Of a stretch of 64,000 nt of DNA, positions 199-25,418 are shown piece after piece. Origin of the DNA: Klebsiella phage KP182; sequence record OM337876.1, one strand, 5' to 3'. Both the position numbers and the translations under genes were made by a program. The notes under the pieces are model-generated. The model had not been told where the DNA came from and made no database searches. It saw nothing but the letters and a program-made list of their open reading frames with translations. Numbering within the stretch: the first letter of the stretch is position 1; every line of letters starts with the position of its first letter.

Positions 199-1758
199 AT
201 GAAAAAGAATAAACTTATCGAAAAATGGCAGCCGCTGCTTGAGAACGAAGCTCTGCCGGAAATTGTTGGCGCTAGCAAAAAAGCTCTGATCGCTAAGATT
301 TTTGAAAACCAGGAAGCTGATATTAATCAGGCTCCAGAATACCGCGATGAAAAAATCGCTGAAGCATTTGGTTCTTTCCTGTCTGAAGCAGAAATTGGCG
401 GTGACCACGGTTATGATGCACAGAACATCGCAGCTGGTCAGACCTCTGGTGCTGTAACCCAGATTGGCCCGGCAGTTATGGGTATGGTTCGTCGTGCTAT
501 CCCTAACCTGATTGCTTTCGATATCTGTGGTGTACAGCCGATGTCTAACCCAACCGGTCAGGTATTCGCTCTCCGCGCTGTTTACGGCAAAGACCCTCTG
601 GCTGCTGGTGCTAAAGAAGCTTTCCATCCGATGTACGCTCCGGATGCAATGTTCTCTGGTCAGGGTGCAACCGAGAAGTTTGAAGCAGTTAAAGCTGGTG
701 CTGCTCTGACTGTTGGTGATATCGTTGTTCACGATTTCGCACAGACCGGTCGTGCTCATCTGCAGGTTGTTGAAGATTTCACTGTAGACGCTGGTGCTAC
801 CGATGCTGCTAAACTGGACGCTGCAGTTACTGCTGCTCTGGAAGCTGGTAAAGTTGTAGAAATCGCCGAAGGTATGGCTACTTCCGTTGCTGAACTGCAA
901 GAAGCATTTAACGGTTCTAAAGATAACCCGTGGAATGAAATGGGCTTCCGTATCGATAAACAAACTATCGAAGCGAAATCTCGTCAGCTGAAAGCACAGT
1001 ATTCCATCGAACTGGCTCAGGACCTCCGTGCTGTTCACGGTATGGACGCTGATGCTGAATTGAGTTCAATCCTGGCTACCGAAATTATGCTGGAAATCAA
1101 CCGTGAAGTTGTTGACTGGATTAACTACTCCGCTCAGGTTGGTAAATCTGGTATGACCCAGACTGTTGGTTCTAAAGCCGGTGTATTCGACTTCCAAGAC
1201 CCGATTGATATCCGTGGTGCTCGTTGGGCAGGTGAAAGCTTTAAAGCTCTGCTGTTCCAGATTGACAAAGAATCCGCTGAAATCGCCCGTCAGACCGGTC
1301 GCGGTGAAGGTAACTTCATTATCGCTTCCCGTAACGTAGTTAACGTACTGGCAGCTGTTGATACCAACGTATCTCCGGCAGCTCAGGGTCTGGGTCGTGG
1401 TTATAATACCGACACCACTAAAGCAGTATTTGCTGGTGTTCTGGGTGGTCGCTACCGTGTATACATCGACCAGTATGCTCGTCAGGATTACTTCACCATC
1501 GGTTATAAAGGTGCTAACGAAATGGATGCTGGTATCTACTATGCTCCGTATGTTGCACTGACCCCGCTGCGTGGTTCCGATCCGAAGAACTTCCAACCGG
1601 TCATGGGGTTCAAAACCCGTTACGGTATCGGTATTAACCCGTTCGCCGATTCTGCTGCTCAACAGCCGAAAGGTCGTATTACCTCTGGTATGCCTTCTAT
1701 CGTCAACTCTGTTGGTAAGAATGCTTACTTCCGTCGTGTATGGGTTAAAGGTATCTAA
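199..1758 (+). CDS. 23: Major capsid protein gp23
   Basis: 519 aa with strong T4 gp23 signature; followed by hairpin terminator at 1768-1797. Confidence 0.97.
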   Translation: MKKNKLIEKWQPLLENEALPEIVGASKKALIAKIFENQEADINQAPEYRDEKIAEAFGSFLSEAEIGGDHGYDAQNIAAGQTSGAVTQIGPAVMGMVRRAIPNLIAFDICGVQPMSNPTGQVFALRAVYGKDPLAAGAKEAFHPMYAPDAMFSGQGATEKFEAVKAGAALTVGDIVVHDFAQTGRAHLQVVEDFTVDAGATDAAKLDAAVTAALEAGKVVEIAEGMATSVAELQEAFNGSKDNPWNEMGFRIDKQTIEAKSRQLKAQYSIELAQDLRAVHGMDADAELSSILATEIMLEINREVVDWINYSAQVGKSGMTQTVGSKAGVFDFQDPIDIRGARWAGESFKALLFQIDKESAEIARQTGRGEGNFIIASRNVVNVLAAVDTNVSPAAQGLGRGYNTDTTKAVFAGVLGGRYRVYIDQYARQDYFTIGYKGANEMDAGIYYAPYVALTPLRGSDPKNFQPVMGFKTRYGIGINPFADSAAQQPKGRITSGMPSIVNSVGKNAYFRRVWVKGI

Positions 1759-3148: not shown

Positions 3149-3697
3149 CTATAAACTAAATATGTCAAACCTCGAGGAGTATTCCTCCTCGAGGGATTTA
3201 AACACGTTCTTATCATAGAGGTTGACGCATTCTATTCCATGTCTACGGGCTATATCAACAGCTACTCTCGTCCCTCCAGATACACTCCCACATCTTTTTT
3301 CAGGCGCCCAATATAATACCTTATCTACAGGCTCAGTGCATTCTAGGCCCAATACCTGCATAGAATTCCGTGCGAATAATGTCTGCACTATCTTCGAGCA
3401 TTCATCCCAGTACGACGTAACTTCTCTCGCCTTAATGATGCTTTTGATTTTGGCTTCGTTTGATAATTCAGACCATACAACAACACCTGTATCAGGAAAG
3501 TGGCCACAAAAGCCAGAGTAAGGAATAATCCTACAAGAATTTGACCTATCGTATTTTGCCAACCACGCTTCATCTGAACCCGGAGCTCCACCTGAATATG
3601 AAAAATGCCCCTCTTCCGAGAGGCGTTGACCTATTATAGTCATTAGACTCAGAACTCTGCGTGGCGCTTCTCTTGAACCAATCAGCGCCAGCCTCAT
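3149..3697 (-). CDS. SLOG-superfamily (DprA/Smf- or YpsA-like) Rossmann-fold protein; not a T4 core gene at this position
   Basis: 182 aa with 'ALIGSREAP' and 'SGGAPGSDEAWL' motifs resembling the DprA/LOG nucleotide-binding fold; the T4 24.2/24.3 slot normally holds much smaller ORFs. Confidence 0.45.
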   Translation of the reverse strand: MRLALIGSREAPRRVLSLMTIIGQRLSEEGHFSYSGGAPGSDEAWLAKYDRSNSCRIIPYSGFCGHFPDTGVVVWSELSNEAKIKSIIKAREVTSYWDECSKIVQTLFARNSMQVLGLECTEPVDKVLYWAPEKRCGSVSGGTRVAVDIARRHGIECVNLYDKNVFKSLEEEYSSRFDIFSL

Positions 3698-4704
3698 TAT
3701 TCTAAAACCTCATGCCATTTACTACGAATAGTGTTTTGAATTAAAATAGTCAGTTCTTTCTTAACTGCAGAAGGATTATCAGCGAATAACATATCGTGAC
3801 CTTCACGAGCTGCTTCGTTAATGATATCTTTCATAGTCAGTCCCATAACACGACCGAAATCTTTAGCAGTTACAGTACCAATATGAGACAGAACGTTACT
3901 TACACGGTTCCAGGTTACATACTCGGAAAAGATTTCCAGAACACGCTTATCAGTATCAGTGAGTTCAACCTTAGCTTTAATAGGCTTATCAGATTTAGCT
4001 TTCTCGCTGAACTTAGAATTCTTGCACTTAATAGCTACACGGGTACCGTTATTAAAGAATTTAGGATTAACCGGTTTAAGAACATAGCCTTCAGCTACAC
4101 CGGTTTCAGAAGAAGCCTGTGGACCGAACACATGTTTATTTGCATGTTCAAGGTCAGTCGTGTCAACAAGTTCATTGTAGTAATTGACAATAGATTTAAA
4201 GTCATTTACATACTGAGATAATTCAGCGAATGAACCACGACCAAGCAGTGGAGCTAATTTAAGACCAAGACCAGTAGCAAACGATTCTACTACATAATCG
4301 TCCCAATAAACTTTTTCATTACCGGAGTCCGACAGGATATCAAACACGTAGAAATCTTTCACACCATAATCTACGCCTTTCTGAATACCGCCGCCAGCAA
4401 ATTCGCCAAAGATTTGAACAGATACTAAATCCATGGCATTTAGCATGTTCTGCATCTTAACGAAAGAATCCTTGTACTTCTTCATGATAATCTCATGACC
4501 AAAGAAGCTTTCACCTTCTAAAATAGGACCAGTACGCTTAGCCGGAACAATTTCGGTAGGGGTAATAATCACACTGAAGTTAGTGCCATGAATCTTCTCA
4601 CGAGCTACCCACTCAACAGTATGCATATCAAAACCAGCACCACGAATTTTCTCGATGAACTTATTGTTGTAATGGTTCTCGAGACTAGAATATTTTGCAA
4701 ACAT
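3697..4704 (-). CDS. rnlB: RNA ligase 2 (Rnl2)
   Basis: 335 aa with KIHGTN adenylation motif; colinear with T4 Rnl2 ('MF.KYSSLENHYN.KFIEK...WVAREKIHGTNFS'). Confidence 0.93.
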   Translation of the reverse strand: MFAKYSSLENHYNNKFIEKIRGAGFDMHTVEWVAREKIHGTNFSVIITPTEIVPAKRTGPILEGESFFGHEIIMKKYKDSFVKMQNMLNAMDLVSVQIFGEFAGGGIQKGVDYGVKDFYVFDILSDSGNEKVYWDDYVVESFATGLGLKLAPLLGRGSFAELSQYVNDFKSIVNYYNELVDTTDLEHANKHVFGPQASSETGVAEGYVLKPVNPKFFNNGTRVAIKCKNSKFSEKAKSDKPIKAKVELTDTDKRVLEIFSEYVTWNRVSNVLSHIGTVTAKDFGRVMGLTMKDIINEAAREGHDMLFADNPSAVKKELTILIQNTIRSKWHEVLE

Positions 4705-24388: not shown

Positions 24389-24473
24389 TTTATTCTCCGT
24401 TGTCCGTTTGGGTGGTACAGGTCTATAGTAACCTTGTTGAGCCTAGAAGTAAACAACTTTTTTCATTCTGCGG

Positions 24474-24504
24474 AAAATAAAAAAGGGACTCCCGAAGGAG
24501 TCCC
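24474..24504 (-). terminator. Rho-independent terminator GGGACUCC-UUCG-GGAGUCCC + U-run
   Basis: 8-bp stem with UUCG loop followed by UUUUUUAUUUU on the minus strand. Confidence 0.65.
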
Positions 24505-24509
24505 TGAAC

Positions 24510-24716
24510 TTATGCTTTCGGCTTACCAAAACGAGAAGCATCATCGCGAAGAACCGCACGAGCTCGACGCATGATTTTCTCAACCGTCTGATTGATACGC
24601 TTGTTCGACCCACGCTTGTAGCCAGCGCGTTTAGAGGTACCAACAACTTCTTTTACTGCAGTTTTTGCTTTAGCCTGTTTAGCCATTTTATCATCTTCCA
24701 TTTTGGAGAAATACAT
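24510..24716 (-). CDS. Very basic small protein (58-68 aa; K/R-rich) downstream of a long structured leader
   Basis: ORF starting MYFSKMEDDKMAKQAKAK...; only the third ATG (MAKQ...) has a Shine-Dalgarno (GGAAGA). Confidence 0.35.
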   Translation of the reverse strand: MYFSKMEDDKMAKQAKAKTAVKEVVGTSKRAGYKRGSNKRINQTVEKIMRRARAVLRDDASRFGKPKA

Positions 24717-25054
24717 GGGAGCACGTTCTTCCGAGGTTCAACTTCTTTCGACAGTTCTTTCGGTTGTAGCTCCCGCAAGCCCTCAAGGGGTACGTTTAAA
24801 CTCTTATCTGTTGCACACCGTTAGCTTAAAGGTTCCGGGTCCGATTTATCGGGGATAAGATATACACCGATGGATGTATAGGCCTTGAGGCGTACTCCCG
24901 ATTGGCCATCGCCTCGGGGTAGCATGCACTTGCCGTTTATTTTCTAGCTGCACTTTGGTAGCAAATCACCGTTGGTTTCGGATGTTTTACGTGGGGATAA
25001 CCAACAACGTCCACATCATACGTTACCCATGCGTACACATGGTGGGCGTACAAA
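24717..25054 (-). ncRNA. Candidate structured non-coding RNA / long structured leader (GC-rich, 338 nt, no ORF over 34 codons)
   Basis: About 50% GC island in an AT-rich genome; multiple nested stems (GGGAGC...GCUCCC closing a CAAC...GUUG stem with repeated CGAAAGAA, GAGGCG/CGCCUC, CCAUG/CAUGG). No tRNA T-loop seen. Confidence 0.35.
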
Positions 25055-25318
25055 TTACTTCAGCGTTACCACAAAGTGGCGAACAGCTTTGCGAGCAGCA
25101 GAACCAAGATGCTTAGCATACTTCAGTTCGTCCATCGCTTCTAAAGTATCACGAAATTCAGCTTGTGCTGGGTTCAGGTGTTTAAACCCTTTCAGAACTT
25201 CCAGTGCTTCTGCATAGATATCGATTGAAGCACCGTAGTTTTCGTGACCGGAATTCCATGCATTACGTTGGAGTTCCAGAGCTTTAGTAAGTTGTTTGTT
25301 CATTGAATCGTTCCTCAA
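25055..25318 (-). CDS. rIII: rIII lysis-inhibition accessory protein
   Basis: 87 aa immediately downstream of gene 31, as in T4. Confidence 0.6.
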   Translation of the reverse strand: MRNDSMNKQLTKALELQRNAWNSGHENYGASIDIYAEALEVLKGFKHLNPAQAEFRDTLEAMDELKYAKHLGSAARKAVRHFVVTLK

Positions 25319-25418
25319 ATGAGGTTAAAATTTGGTGGACGGTAACCGAGGTTTAGCTCGGGCATCCACCGCATAGAATTGCTCGGGTAACTAATTGTCC
25401 GACGCCCAATTCATATTA

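Follow-up and report, generated by a model that had tools for sequence, protein, structure and literature searches.

The intergenic spacer between genes rIII and 30.9 of Klebsiella phage KP182, a T4-like (T4-type) phage of the genus Jiaodavirus, is a multi-module locus of independently evolving structured RNAs. We analyzed 64,000 nucleotides (nt) of sequence record OM337876.1, the whole of which is referred to here as the window. The initial annotation of this stretch flagged 338 nt of it (24717-25054) as a single GC-rich, structured, non-coding element. Given that 30.9 begins at 24686, the spacer comprises 368 nt (25054-24687, minus strand), and rather than being one element, it consists of at least seven independent modules, the order and presence of which vary among phages. 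One of these, the 143-nt core (module A), is shown to be a new, autonomous RNA domain, with covariation among its variants revealing strong selection for its fold. Another, module E, is shown by its sequence identity to plasmid-borne repeats to be one lone unit of ToxI, the antitoxin RNA of the ToxIN type III toxin-antitoxin/abortive infection systems.

The mosaic organization is apparent from the alignment of rIII-30.9 spacers of Jiaodavirus, Tequatrovirus (T4 and slur03), Karamvirus and Muldoonvirus, to which 24 more loci from IMG/VR were added. The spacers range from 120 to ~400 nt in length, and the same modules recur in differing orders and combinations among the T4-like genera. In the window, where each module is single-copy, the order, from 5' to 3' on the minus strand, is D, B, E, A (the core), F, G, H. 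The spacer of T4 contains modules B, F, G and H as well as its own long hairpin and a stretch that is weakly similar to ToxI, and it lacks the core. A single Tequatrovirus site occurs as three alleles, namely, empty (T4), filled by the core (slur03, JS98-like and VR5-like phages) and filled by the ~45-nt module C (loci L053 and L055).

Fold and selection of the core RNA

The core (24797-24939; all modules and genes described below lie on the minus strand) folds into seven helices that are supported by covariation in 31 variants. The closing stem P1, of 5 base pairs (bp; 24939-24935/24801-24797), opens straight onto a four-way junction with zero linker nucleotides, and one arm of this junction holds a three-way junction. 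P2 (GGC/GCC; 24934-24932/24883-24881) encloses an 8/6-nt internal loop (AAGUGCAU / CUCAAG) and the long hairpin P2a (24923-24890), whereas P3 (24880-24874/24867-24861) is a 7-bp hairpin with the loop nYCAUYRR, in which CAU is kept. P4 (UCUUAUC/GAUAAGA; 24860-24854/24808-24802) encloses the three-way junction, which consists of P5, P6 and the invariant strand GCAACA (24814-24809). P5 (24852-24841) is capped by a GNRA-type or UAAA tetraloop (GAAA, GUAA or UAAA) and corresponds to the CCGA-UAAA-UCGG stem of the initial annotation, which covaries across the homologs; the other stems listed there are likewise present in the sequence where they were placed. In P6 (ACCCG/CGGUGU; 24840-24836/24820-24815), a G-C pair is replaced by A-U in L041 and an A-U pair by U-A in L033. 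P1 is hypervariable, with the stems AAAC/GUUU, AUAGC/GCUAU, AUAC/GUAU, UUAC/GUAG, AAUC/GAUU and ACAGC/GCUGU all represented.

The evidence for this structure is comparative rather than thermodynamic because the fold of the single sequence is not unusual: its energy is unremarkable (z = -1.29), and 11 of 100 shuffled sequences fold equally well, whereas the homologs abound in compensatory changes. The 31 distinct variants, collected from GenBank phages, IMG/VR and metagenomes, were aligned with MAFFT without regard to structure and folded with RNAalifold, which yielded 44 pairs in the seven helices, with 98.4% of the cells paired. Changes on both sides affect 24 of the 44 pairs, compared with 9.4 +/- 1.8 in shuffled alignments (0 of 500 reach the observed number) and 3-8 in slid controls. 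The alignment includes ~60 G-U cells that fit the rIII-sense strand only, in agreement with the earlier description of the block as non-coding and structured on the transcribed minus strand, and ~50 unpaired or junction nucleotides are invariant. Across the 64 kb, the covariance model of the core has a single match, of 187.9 bits, and it scores the divergent variants at 122 bits (L041), 125 bits (L016 and L059) and 143 bits (phage PKM.Lu.22.1); these differ at many stem positions and keep the pairs through compensatory changes, which demonstrates selection on the core fold. Around P2a, two mutually exclusive pairings compete, P2a itself (96.5% kept) and the GAGGCG/CGCCUC helix proposed initially (92.9% kept). 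The latter is present but excludes the better supported P2a, and because it is also largely kept, the region may adopt a second conformation.

The same alignment bears on coding potential. The block was initially described as having no open reading frame (ORF) longer than 34 codons, which overlooks a plus-strand ORF of 47 codons from an ATG (51 from a TTG) at 24715-24858. This ORF is annotated as hypothetical protein kpv477_220 in phage vB_KpnM_KpV477 (L001:1999-2142) and as a hypothetical protein in several records; elsewhere, up to three coding sequences (CDSs) are annotated under the 338-nt block and up to six under the surrounding 1 kb. That the block encodes a small protein that was missed, such as this one, is nevertheless exceedingly improbable: on both strands, every reading frame is interrupted in several of the 31 variants (the longest stop-free run is only 11-29 codons in several), the core variants differ by one-base indels, and the substitutions are compensatory in RNA stems. 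Since no frame is conserved, the 47-codon ORF is non-coding, and the annotated CDSs look like misannotation of non-coding RNA.

Searches for relatives of the core were uniformly unproductive. Rfam 15 gave no gathering-level match in the whole 64 kb, and at E <= 10, the spacer, the core alone (as 155 nt) and module E alone gave only chance matches (snoZ242, Atu_C8 on the terminator and HIV-1_SD). No match to the core was detected by blastn among 5,426 Escherichia coli genomes and 72,556 PLSDB plasmids. In 185,579 species genomes, a degenerate 21-mer core pattern had 0 matches, and a split pattern had at least 120, with 0 of the 120 among the matches listed fitting the core model; relaxed patterns added only two chance matches in IMG/VR, inside ORFs. 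When blastn was walked outward from L041, the most divergent core, the number of matching records stayed much the same, as did their distribution over host genera, so the core family did not grow. The initial annotation could not fit the block to a tRNA, a group I intron, 6S RNA or RNase P RNA, which is borne out by the null results of ARAGORN and Rfam.

Three further identities of the core were rejected. As to tRNA, tmRNA or a tRNA-like RNA, ARAGORN finds 0 genes in the window, and the core has no D-loop or T-loop motifs. As to a homolog of the T4 RNAs rnaC and rnaD, the core model (R1), run unfiltered, reaches no more than 6.8 bits anywhere among the T4 tRNA genes and has no match at either rnaC or rnaD. 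The likeness of the core string AAGUGCA-UGCUACC to a toxI repeat junction is due to chance because these positions vary in other variants or covary as part of P2a. Core sequence strings had no match in the literature text searched, nor did the literature searched contain a description of RNAs between rIII and 30.9. By all these comparisons, the core is a new RNA family without a known relative.

Distribution and mobility of the core

The core matches ~400 of 50,697 GenBank phage records, with hosts that include Klebsiella, Escherichia, Shigella, Enterobacter, Yersinia, Salmonella, Serratia, Citrobacter, Kosakonia and Raoultella. It is present in 16 of 35 gp31-linked IMG/VR loci, the other 19 retaining the rest of the leader and 30.9 without it. 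The core lies downstream of rIII in every T4-type case examined, at a position that varies relative to modules B, E and F. It is ~95% identical between Jiaodavirus and Tequatrovirus, compared with ~70% for the neighboring gp31 proteins, and between T4 and slur03, it is a clean presence/absence indel. A full copy, with its own variants of P1, P3 and P4 and with P1 covarying, is found in PKM.Lu.22.1, a 76-kb, 7-11-like phage of the Grimontviridae, where it has a phi32_40-like gene on one side and the gene for an ECF sigma factor on the other. Exactly these ~150 nt are missing from PKM.Hi.22.6, a 98%-identical sister of PKM.Lu.22.1, and from phage 7-11. In PKM.Lu.22.1, the core is inserted right beside a ToxI unit, and in the window too, it adjoins module E.

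The indel pattern and the Grimontviridae copy show that the core passes from phage to phage in one piece, even between families; it is therefore an autonomous, horizontally moving RNA that is not functionally tied to rIII or 30.9. The horizontal acquisition proposed in the initial annotation is thus borne out for the core, which is gained or lost cleanly between close relatives and also occurs in an unrelated phage family, that is, for a part of the block at least. Such mobility would also be expected if the core were a functionless passenger, that is, something left over from a mobile element, or a recombination cassette spread by homologous exchange in co-infection, the conservation of which reflects recent transfer only. 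This possibility fits the cleanly bounded indels, the alternative alleles found at the one fixed site and the core's entry into an unrelated phage, as well as the precedent of the PeSL (promoter-early stem-loop) elements described by Arbiol and colleagues in 2010, regulatory cassettes that reportedly shuffle in the hyperplastic regions of T4-type genomes and are said to consist of a terminator-like hairpin and an early promoter, with many repeats per genome. The spacer modules resemble PeSL elements in being short, non-coding, recurrent in different orders and probably moved by recombination, but they are single-copy in the 64 kb, lack promoter calls and have complex folds selected as RNA. The divergent core variants, with their pairs kept by compensatory changes, are not merely recent copies, and there is no endonuclease, transposase or terminal repeat beside the core; a passenger is, accordingly, quite unlikely in our assessment.

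The initial annotation further envisaged a riboregulatory leader that controls the basic protein encoded downstream. This fits only the last two modules, the variable stem G and the hairpin H that sequesters the Shine-Dalgarno (SD) sequence, and does not extend to the core, given that both the distance from the core to 30.9 and the modules in between are variable, 30.9 is retained in T4 although the core is absent, and the Grimontviridae core sits beside quite different genes. A more specific version would make the core a cis-acting, riboswitch-like sensor in the 30.9 leader or the 3' untranslated region of rIII, with a ligand altering transcription, RNA decay or 30.9 translation. The core does have the look of an aptamer, with its closing P1, multi-helix junctions, invariant purine-rich junction nucleotides and length of ~140 nt. 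SAM-I and the four-way-junction aptamers yybP-ykoY and NiCo similarly have a P1 that closes on a four-way junction and conserved junction nucleotides within ~110-150 nt, and by eye, the core strings CUUAUC...ACCCGG...GGUG.CAA...AGAUAAG are reminiscent of SAM-I. Furthermore, the core is upstream of a gene with an apparently sequestered SD, precedes an intrinsic terminator in PKM.Lu.22.1, and contains, in the two exclusive pairings of the P2a region, what could be a conformational switch. Unlike riboswitches, however, it has no Rfam riboswitch match at E <= 10, changes position and is dispensable, with T4 and 19 of the 35 sampled relatives keeping the remainder of the leader and 30.9, and the sister of PKM.Lu.22.1 keeping module E and the terminator. 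Nor is there a conserved expression platform: P1 and all sequence 3' of it differ between lineages, no conserved sequence joins P1 to any downstream element, the module next to it is F, B or E depending on the lineage, and 0 to ~120 nt of other modules, including B, separate the core from the 30.9 start. We regard a cis-acting sensor as unlikely.

The ToxI-like unit and the other modules

Module E (24939-24974; CAAC-GGUGAUUUGCUACC-AAA-GUGCAGCUAGAAAAU) is the most readily identified part of the spacer, although it was overlooked initially. Its two pseudoknot-forming segments, GGUGAUUUGCUACC and GUGCAGCUAGAA, are identical (26/26) to the toxI consensus of the E. coli plasmid pNMEC-O75B, in which an authentic array of 5.6 x AGGTGATTTGCTACCTTTAAGTGCAGCTAGAAATTC is followed by a terminator and then by the ToxN/AbiQ toxin gene. 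ToxIN-type systems are carried on small enterobacterial plasmids, and a BLAST search found the module E motif in 67 of these, at 3-10 places each among the matches listed. Like ToxI and pseudo-ToxI, the unit contains two interleaved helices, G2-G3-U4/A13-C14-C15 and U9-G10-C11/G23-C24-A25. The pseudoknot pairs are kept in 94.4% of the cells across 24 ToxI-like units, compared with 21-64% in slid controls; pair 9-25 occurs as CG, AU, UA and GC, consistent with the compensatory U9C/A25G pair reported for ToxI (PMC3475682). Residues C27 and U28, which lie at the main interface with ToxN and are each individually essential in ToxI (Blower et al. 2012, PMC3475682), are kept in module E (...GCAG-C-U-AGAA), identical to ToxI, whereas pseudo-ToxI of phage PhiTE differs at these positions. 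The loop is 2 nt shorter than in the toxI consensus, within a region (U16-18) that is tolerant of length change in ToxI (PMC3475682), and module E shares with pseudo-ToxI an extra 3' A. Rfam is silent on module E because it has no ToxI model, as is evident from the lack of any match for the authentic toxI array.

Module E also resembles pseudo-ToxI of PhiTE in being intergenic in a lytic phage. It differs from ToxI in being a single unit, with one copy in the window by both regular-expression and fuzzy searches, as opposed to 5.5 tandem repeats, and in lacking a toxN gene. The 5' tail differs from toxI at all five positions. With regard to the ToxN cleavage motif (AA^AU), the 3' end reads GAAAAU, and the 5' side, GAAACCAAC, has no AAAU. 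The adjacent core is not ToxI-like at all.

Units of this kind are found in many unrelated lytic-phage contigs, in 1 to 4 copies, sometimes in tandem or inside tRNA clusters (L094:~1900-2060; L085:~1600-1900; L083:~1860-1940; L104:~9200). In the PhiTE genome (142,349 bp), the motif is at the published 'escape locus' (L087:2949-3010). The tandem copies number four, all diverged, in L094, three or more in a jumbo-phage contig of 341 kb and two in L083; the units of L104 and PhiTE lie between tRNA genes. In the 7-11-like Grimontviridae (phage 7-11, L082:~610-690, minus strand; L081; L080), a lone ToxI unit, complete with its two GAAAU cleavage motifs, precedes an intrinsic terminator and lies just upstream of the gene for the phage ECF sigma factor. 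ToxI-like units in phages are elements of a known kind; what seems to be new is their occurrence in T4-type and 7-11-type phages, of which we found no mention in the ToxIN and pseudo-ToxI literature examined. Phage-borne ToxI mimics appear to be far more widespread than the single published case. At the start of the T4 spacer, just past the rIII stop codon (L005:3745-3785, minus strand), the stretch GGAGAUUCACUGCCUUAGUGUGAGCUAAAUCG can be loosely aligned to a ToxI unit, its helix 2 being CAC/GUG in place of UGC/GCA. Neither a matching plasmid array nor any other bacterial counterpart of it was found, so it could be either a ToxI unit that has degenerated or a mimic with another specificity.

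Another reading of the core is that it is a ribozyme, self-cleaving or catalytic in some other way, with its cut in the transcript falling between rIII and 30.9 or beside the ToxI-like unit. The complex conserved fold, the invariant junction nucleotides and the GNRA hairpin, suited to tertiary docking, are compatible with catalysis, and the core immediately adjoins module E, which needs defined ends. Yet the position of the core relative to module E is not constant, no Rfam ribozyme family is resembled and no cleavage site is indicated by the sequence data, so that we rate this explanation as very unlikely.

Module B (24971-25021) is an H-type pseudoknot with an A-rich third loop (UAUGAUG-GUGG..UUGGUU-AUCC-CCAC-GUAAAACAUCCGAA-AACCAA). 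In 18 variants, 81.9% of its cells are paired, compared with 39-55% in slid controls, and 31 cells are changed on both sides, compared with 4-8. It is present in T4, precedes the core in the spacers of Jiaodavirus and Muldoonvirus, and follows it in those of Tequatrovirus and Karamvirus. Its architecture, although not its sequence, recalls the type III antitoxins TenpI and CptI, TenpI units being described in general as H-type pseudoknots of ~50 nt with an A-rich loop (PMC12283969). In contrast to these, module B is ~50 nt without repetition, has no toxin gene nearby and no sequence match to plasmids or E. coli genomes. Module D (25026-25046), just 3' of the rIII stop codon, is the hairpin CCAUG-UG(UACG)CA-UGG with a UNCG-type loop; as inspection by eye suggests, this hairpin, already noted in the initial annotation, recurs elsewhere with altered stems, the GUGUACGC hairpin being found with CUUUG/CAAAG and ACGUG/CGU stems just upstream of 30.9 in L041, L051 and L052. 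Module F (24776-24793) is a short GUACCCCUUGAGGGCUUG hairpin, GUACCCC-UUGA-GGGCUUG, with conserved flanks, which forms an invariant alignment block that is also found in T4. Its stem varies between CCC/GGG, CCUC/GAGG and UCC/GGA, it has no U-tract, the terminator scan makes no call there, and in L036, L058 and L059 it directly follows the rIII stop codon.

Module G (24717-24774) is a long stem, GGGAGC...GCUCCC, around CAAC...GUUG and two CGAAAGAA motifs. At its site, a stem is kept at a fixed place while its sequence is wholly replaced between lineages: GCAGG..CCUGC in T4, GAACUGG..CCAGUUC in L028, GAGAGGU..ACCUCUC in L036 and GGGAG..CUCCC with a 9-nt loop in L042. Module H (24694-24710; AUG at 24686-24684) is the hairpin UUCUCC-AAAAU-GGAAGA, paired by eye, which holds the SD-like GGAAGA; its AUGUAUUUCUCCnAAAUGGAAGA is conserved in several genera, and the T4 analog is UUUUC..GAGAA. 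From their place and form, modules G and H plausibly tune the translation of 30.9. Two structures are found elsewhere. Module C, with a closing stem around UGCGUCAGCAAAAGGUUAGCUGUCUAAGACU, occupies the core insertion site in some Tequatrovirus-like phages, namely, L053 (~3345-3390), L055, L050, L037 and L059, the last with the short version CAGGGAAACCGUAAGU, and has no plasmid or E. coli match. In T4, a ~95-nt long-range hairpin (L005:~3625-3745, minus strand; CGAGGAGCCGUCGAACUGUC ... GACAGUUUUACGGUGUACCUCUUG) separates the ToxI-like stretch from module B and encloses a second hairpin, AUGAUU-UGCG-AAUCAU; a shortened version is present in L028.

The transcription unit and a possible role in counter-defense

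The region from 24400 to 25400 is 99.5% identical to that of vB_KpnM_KpV477 over this 1 kb. The genes here are ordered cd, 31.1, 31 (the GroES-like co-chaperonin), rIII, the flagged gap, 30.9 and 30.8. The placement of the block between rIII and a small basic gene has proved accurate, and the latter is T4 gene 30.9. The upstream gene of the transcription unit, rIII (25055-25303), encodes the lysis inhibition accessory protein (phrog_1457, E = 1.6e-40) and is named rIII in KpV477 and its relatives. Gene 30.9 (24510-24686; phrog_1427, E = 2.2e-33) encodes a very basic, Lys/Arg-rich protein of 58 amino acids that matches no Pfam family, is conserved in all T4-type phages examined and is always encoded directly downstream of the RNA modules. 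Because of this constant position, an RNA-binding role of the 30.9 protein is conceivable. Its start was initially placed at 24716, with no SD; the true start is 30 nt downstream, at 24686, after the SD-like GGAAGA, and gives the N-terminus MAKQAKAK, as in T4 and all relatives. The estimate of about 50% G+C for the block was close to the measured 49.4% (compared with 39.5% in the window), which is within the top 1% of 338-nt windows, the rest of which are all in capsid gene 23.

The strong terminator noted after the basic ORF is an intrinsic one (24484-24505), with a 9-bp stem that includes 6 G-C pairs, followed by UUUUUUAUUUU. Within ~30 nt past it (24425-24505), GTTTAC-18 nt-TACTAT looks, by eye, like a T4 early promoter for 30.8; the terminator and this promoter-like sequence make up a PeSL-type cassette, in which the sigma-70 consensus scan did not call a promoter. 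Inside the spacer, the scan called neither a terminator-like nor a sigma-70-like site on the minus strand, from which we infer that the spacer is the untranslated part of one transcription unit, comprising rIII, the spacer, 30.9 and the terminator, and that the modules are transcribed together with both genes.

The location of all modules between two cistrons of one unit is what one would expect of elements of mRNA processing or stability, such as sites for RNase P, E or III or exonuclease blocks, that would set separate half-lives for rIII and 30.9, with no role in trans for any module, the core included. Several likenesses to tRNA add to the appeal of this explanation: the four helices of the core follow cloverleaf order, P1 and P4 stack, in a by-eye reading, to 12 bp like an acceptor/T minihelix, and ToxI-like units in other phages reside inside tRNA clusters. 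Moreover, T4 makes the stable RNAs rnaC and rnaD (species 1 and 2) from a tRNA precursor, and these are, like the core, structured RNAs of ~120-140 nt encoded by T4-type phages. Punctuation of this kind, however, would not need ~50 invariant unpaired or junction nucleotides, nor would one expect 95% identity across genera combined with dispensability in half of the relatives. ARAGORN finds no tRNA-like gene, and the core lies in a different genomic place from rnaC and rnaD, which its model does not match. A role limited to mRNA processing seems to us improbable.

The alternative that we favor, at even chances, is that the spacer works as an RNA counter-defense island. During infection, when host transcription and with it the labile host antitoxin RNA are shut off, the modules would be made within the rIII-30.9 transcript and go on to act in trans. 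Module E would take the place of ToxI on ToxN, once the host toxI decays after the transcription shut-off, by analogy with pseudo-ToxI of PhiTE; this logic is established for ToxIN and pseudo-ToxI (PMC3475682; PMC10853763). The core, and perhaps the pseudoknot of module B, would bind and neutralize a host protein, for instance a defense nuclease or a toxin whose RNA partner is imitated, or else sequester another host factor, whereas stem G and the SD-sequestering hairpin H alone would serve the translation of 30.9. In favor of this are the match of module E to authentic toxI arrays, with C27 and U28 kept, and the spread of ToxI-like units over unrelated lytic phages, the PhiTE escape locus included. 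The core also lies directly beside module E both in PKM.Lu.22.1 and in the window, and variation between presence and absence at one site, for which module C provides a third allele, is typically seen in accessory anti-defense loci. Still, that the core specifically is a counter-defense RNA is doubtful, if a real possibility.

Several considerations weigh against such a role. Co-transcription of the modules is inferred only from the lack of promoter and terminator calls, and guilt by association with one ToxI-like unit is a weak argument. Module E may be inactive in this phage because it occurs only once, its 5' tail is altered and it lacks the 5' AAAU, and in PhiTE, 1.5 pseudo-ToxI repeats were insufficient, expansion to 4.5-5.5 repeats being needed (PMC3475682). 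Modules B and C have no detected bacterial counterpart, and none was found for the T4 spacer. Unlike module E, which has its original in toxI, the core as a 'mimic' has no identified original, given that no cellular RNA resembling it was found in the searches described above.

To our knowledge, known phage counter-defenses are almost all proteins, and the only well-studied RNA case is pseudo-ToxI, from one Pectobacterium phage. ToxI-like units are now seen to spread over T4-type, 7-11-type, rV5-type and jumbo phages of enterobacteria, and where T4-type phages carry them, it is at a fixed intergenic site that also houses other structured RNAs, themselves strongly selected. Such a site, collecting interchangeable structured RNAs that include an antitoxin mimic, would be a new variant of counter-defense organization. 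It is a tentative suggestion, at rather less than even odds, that the core founds a new class of phage-borne, mobile RNAs that disarm a host immune protein by imitating or replacing its regulatory RNA or by sponging its signal, with ToxI mimics, B, C and the core being interchangeable cassettes of an 'RNA anti-defense island'.

In practical terms, several GenBank records carry spurious CDSs over the core RNA. The ~400 sequenced carriers of the core are found among therapeutic phages of Klebsiella, E. coli, Enterobacter, Yersinia and Serratia, so if the core blocks a host defense, it would bear on host range and be relevant to phage therapy. The core could then also be used as bait to identify the target system, and its action would widen the known uses of RNA mimicry in the arms race between phages and their hosts.

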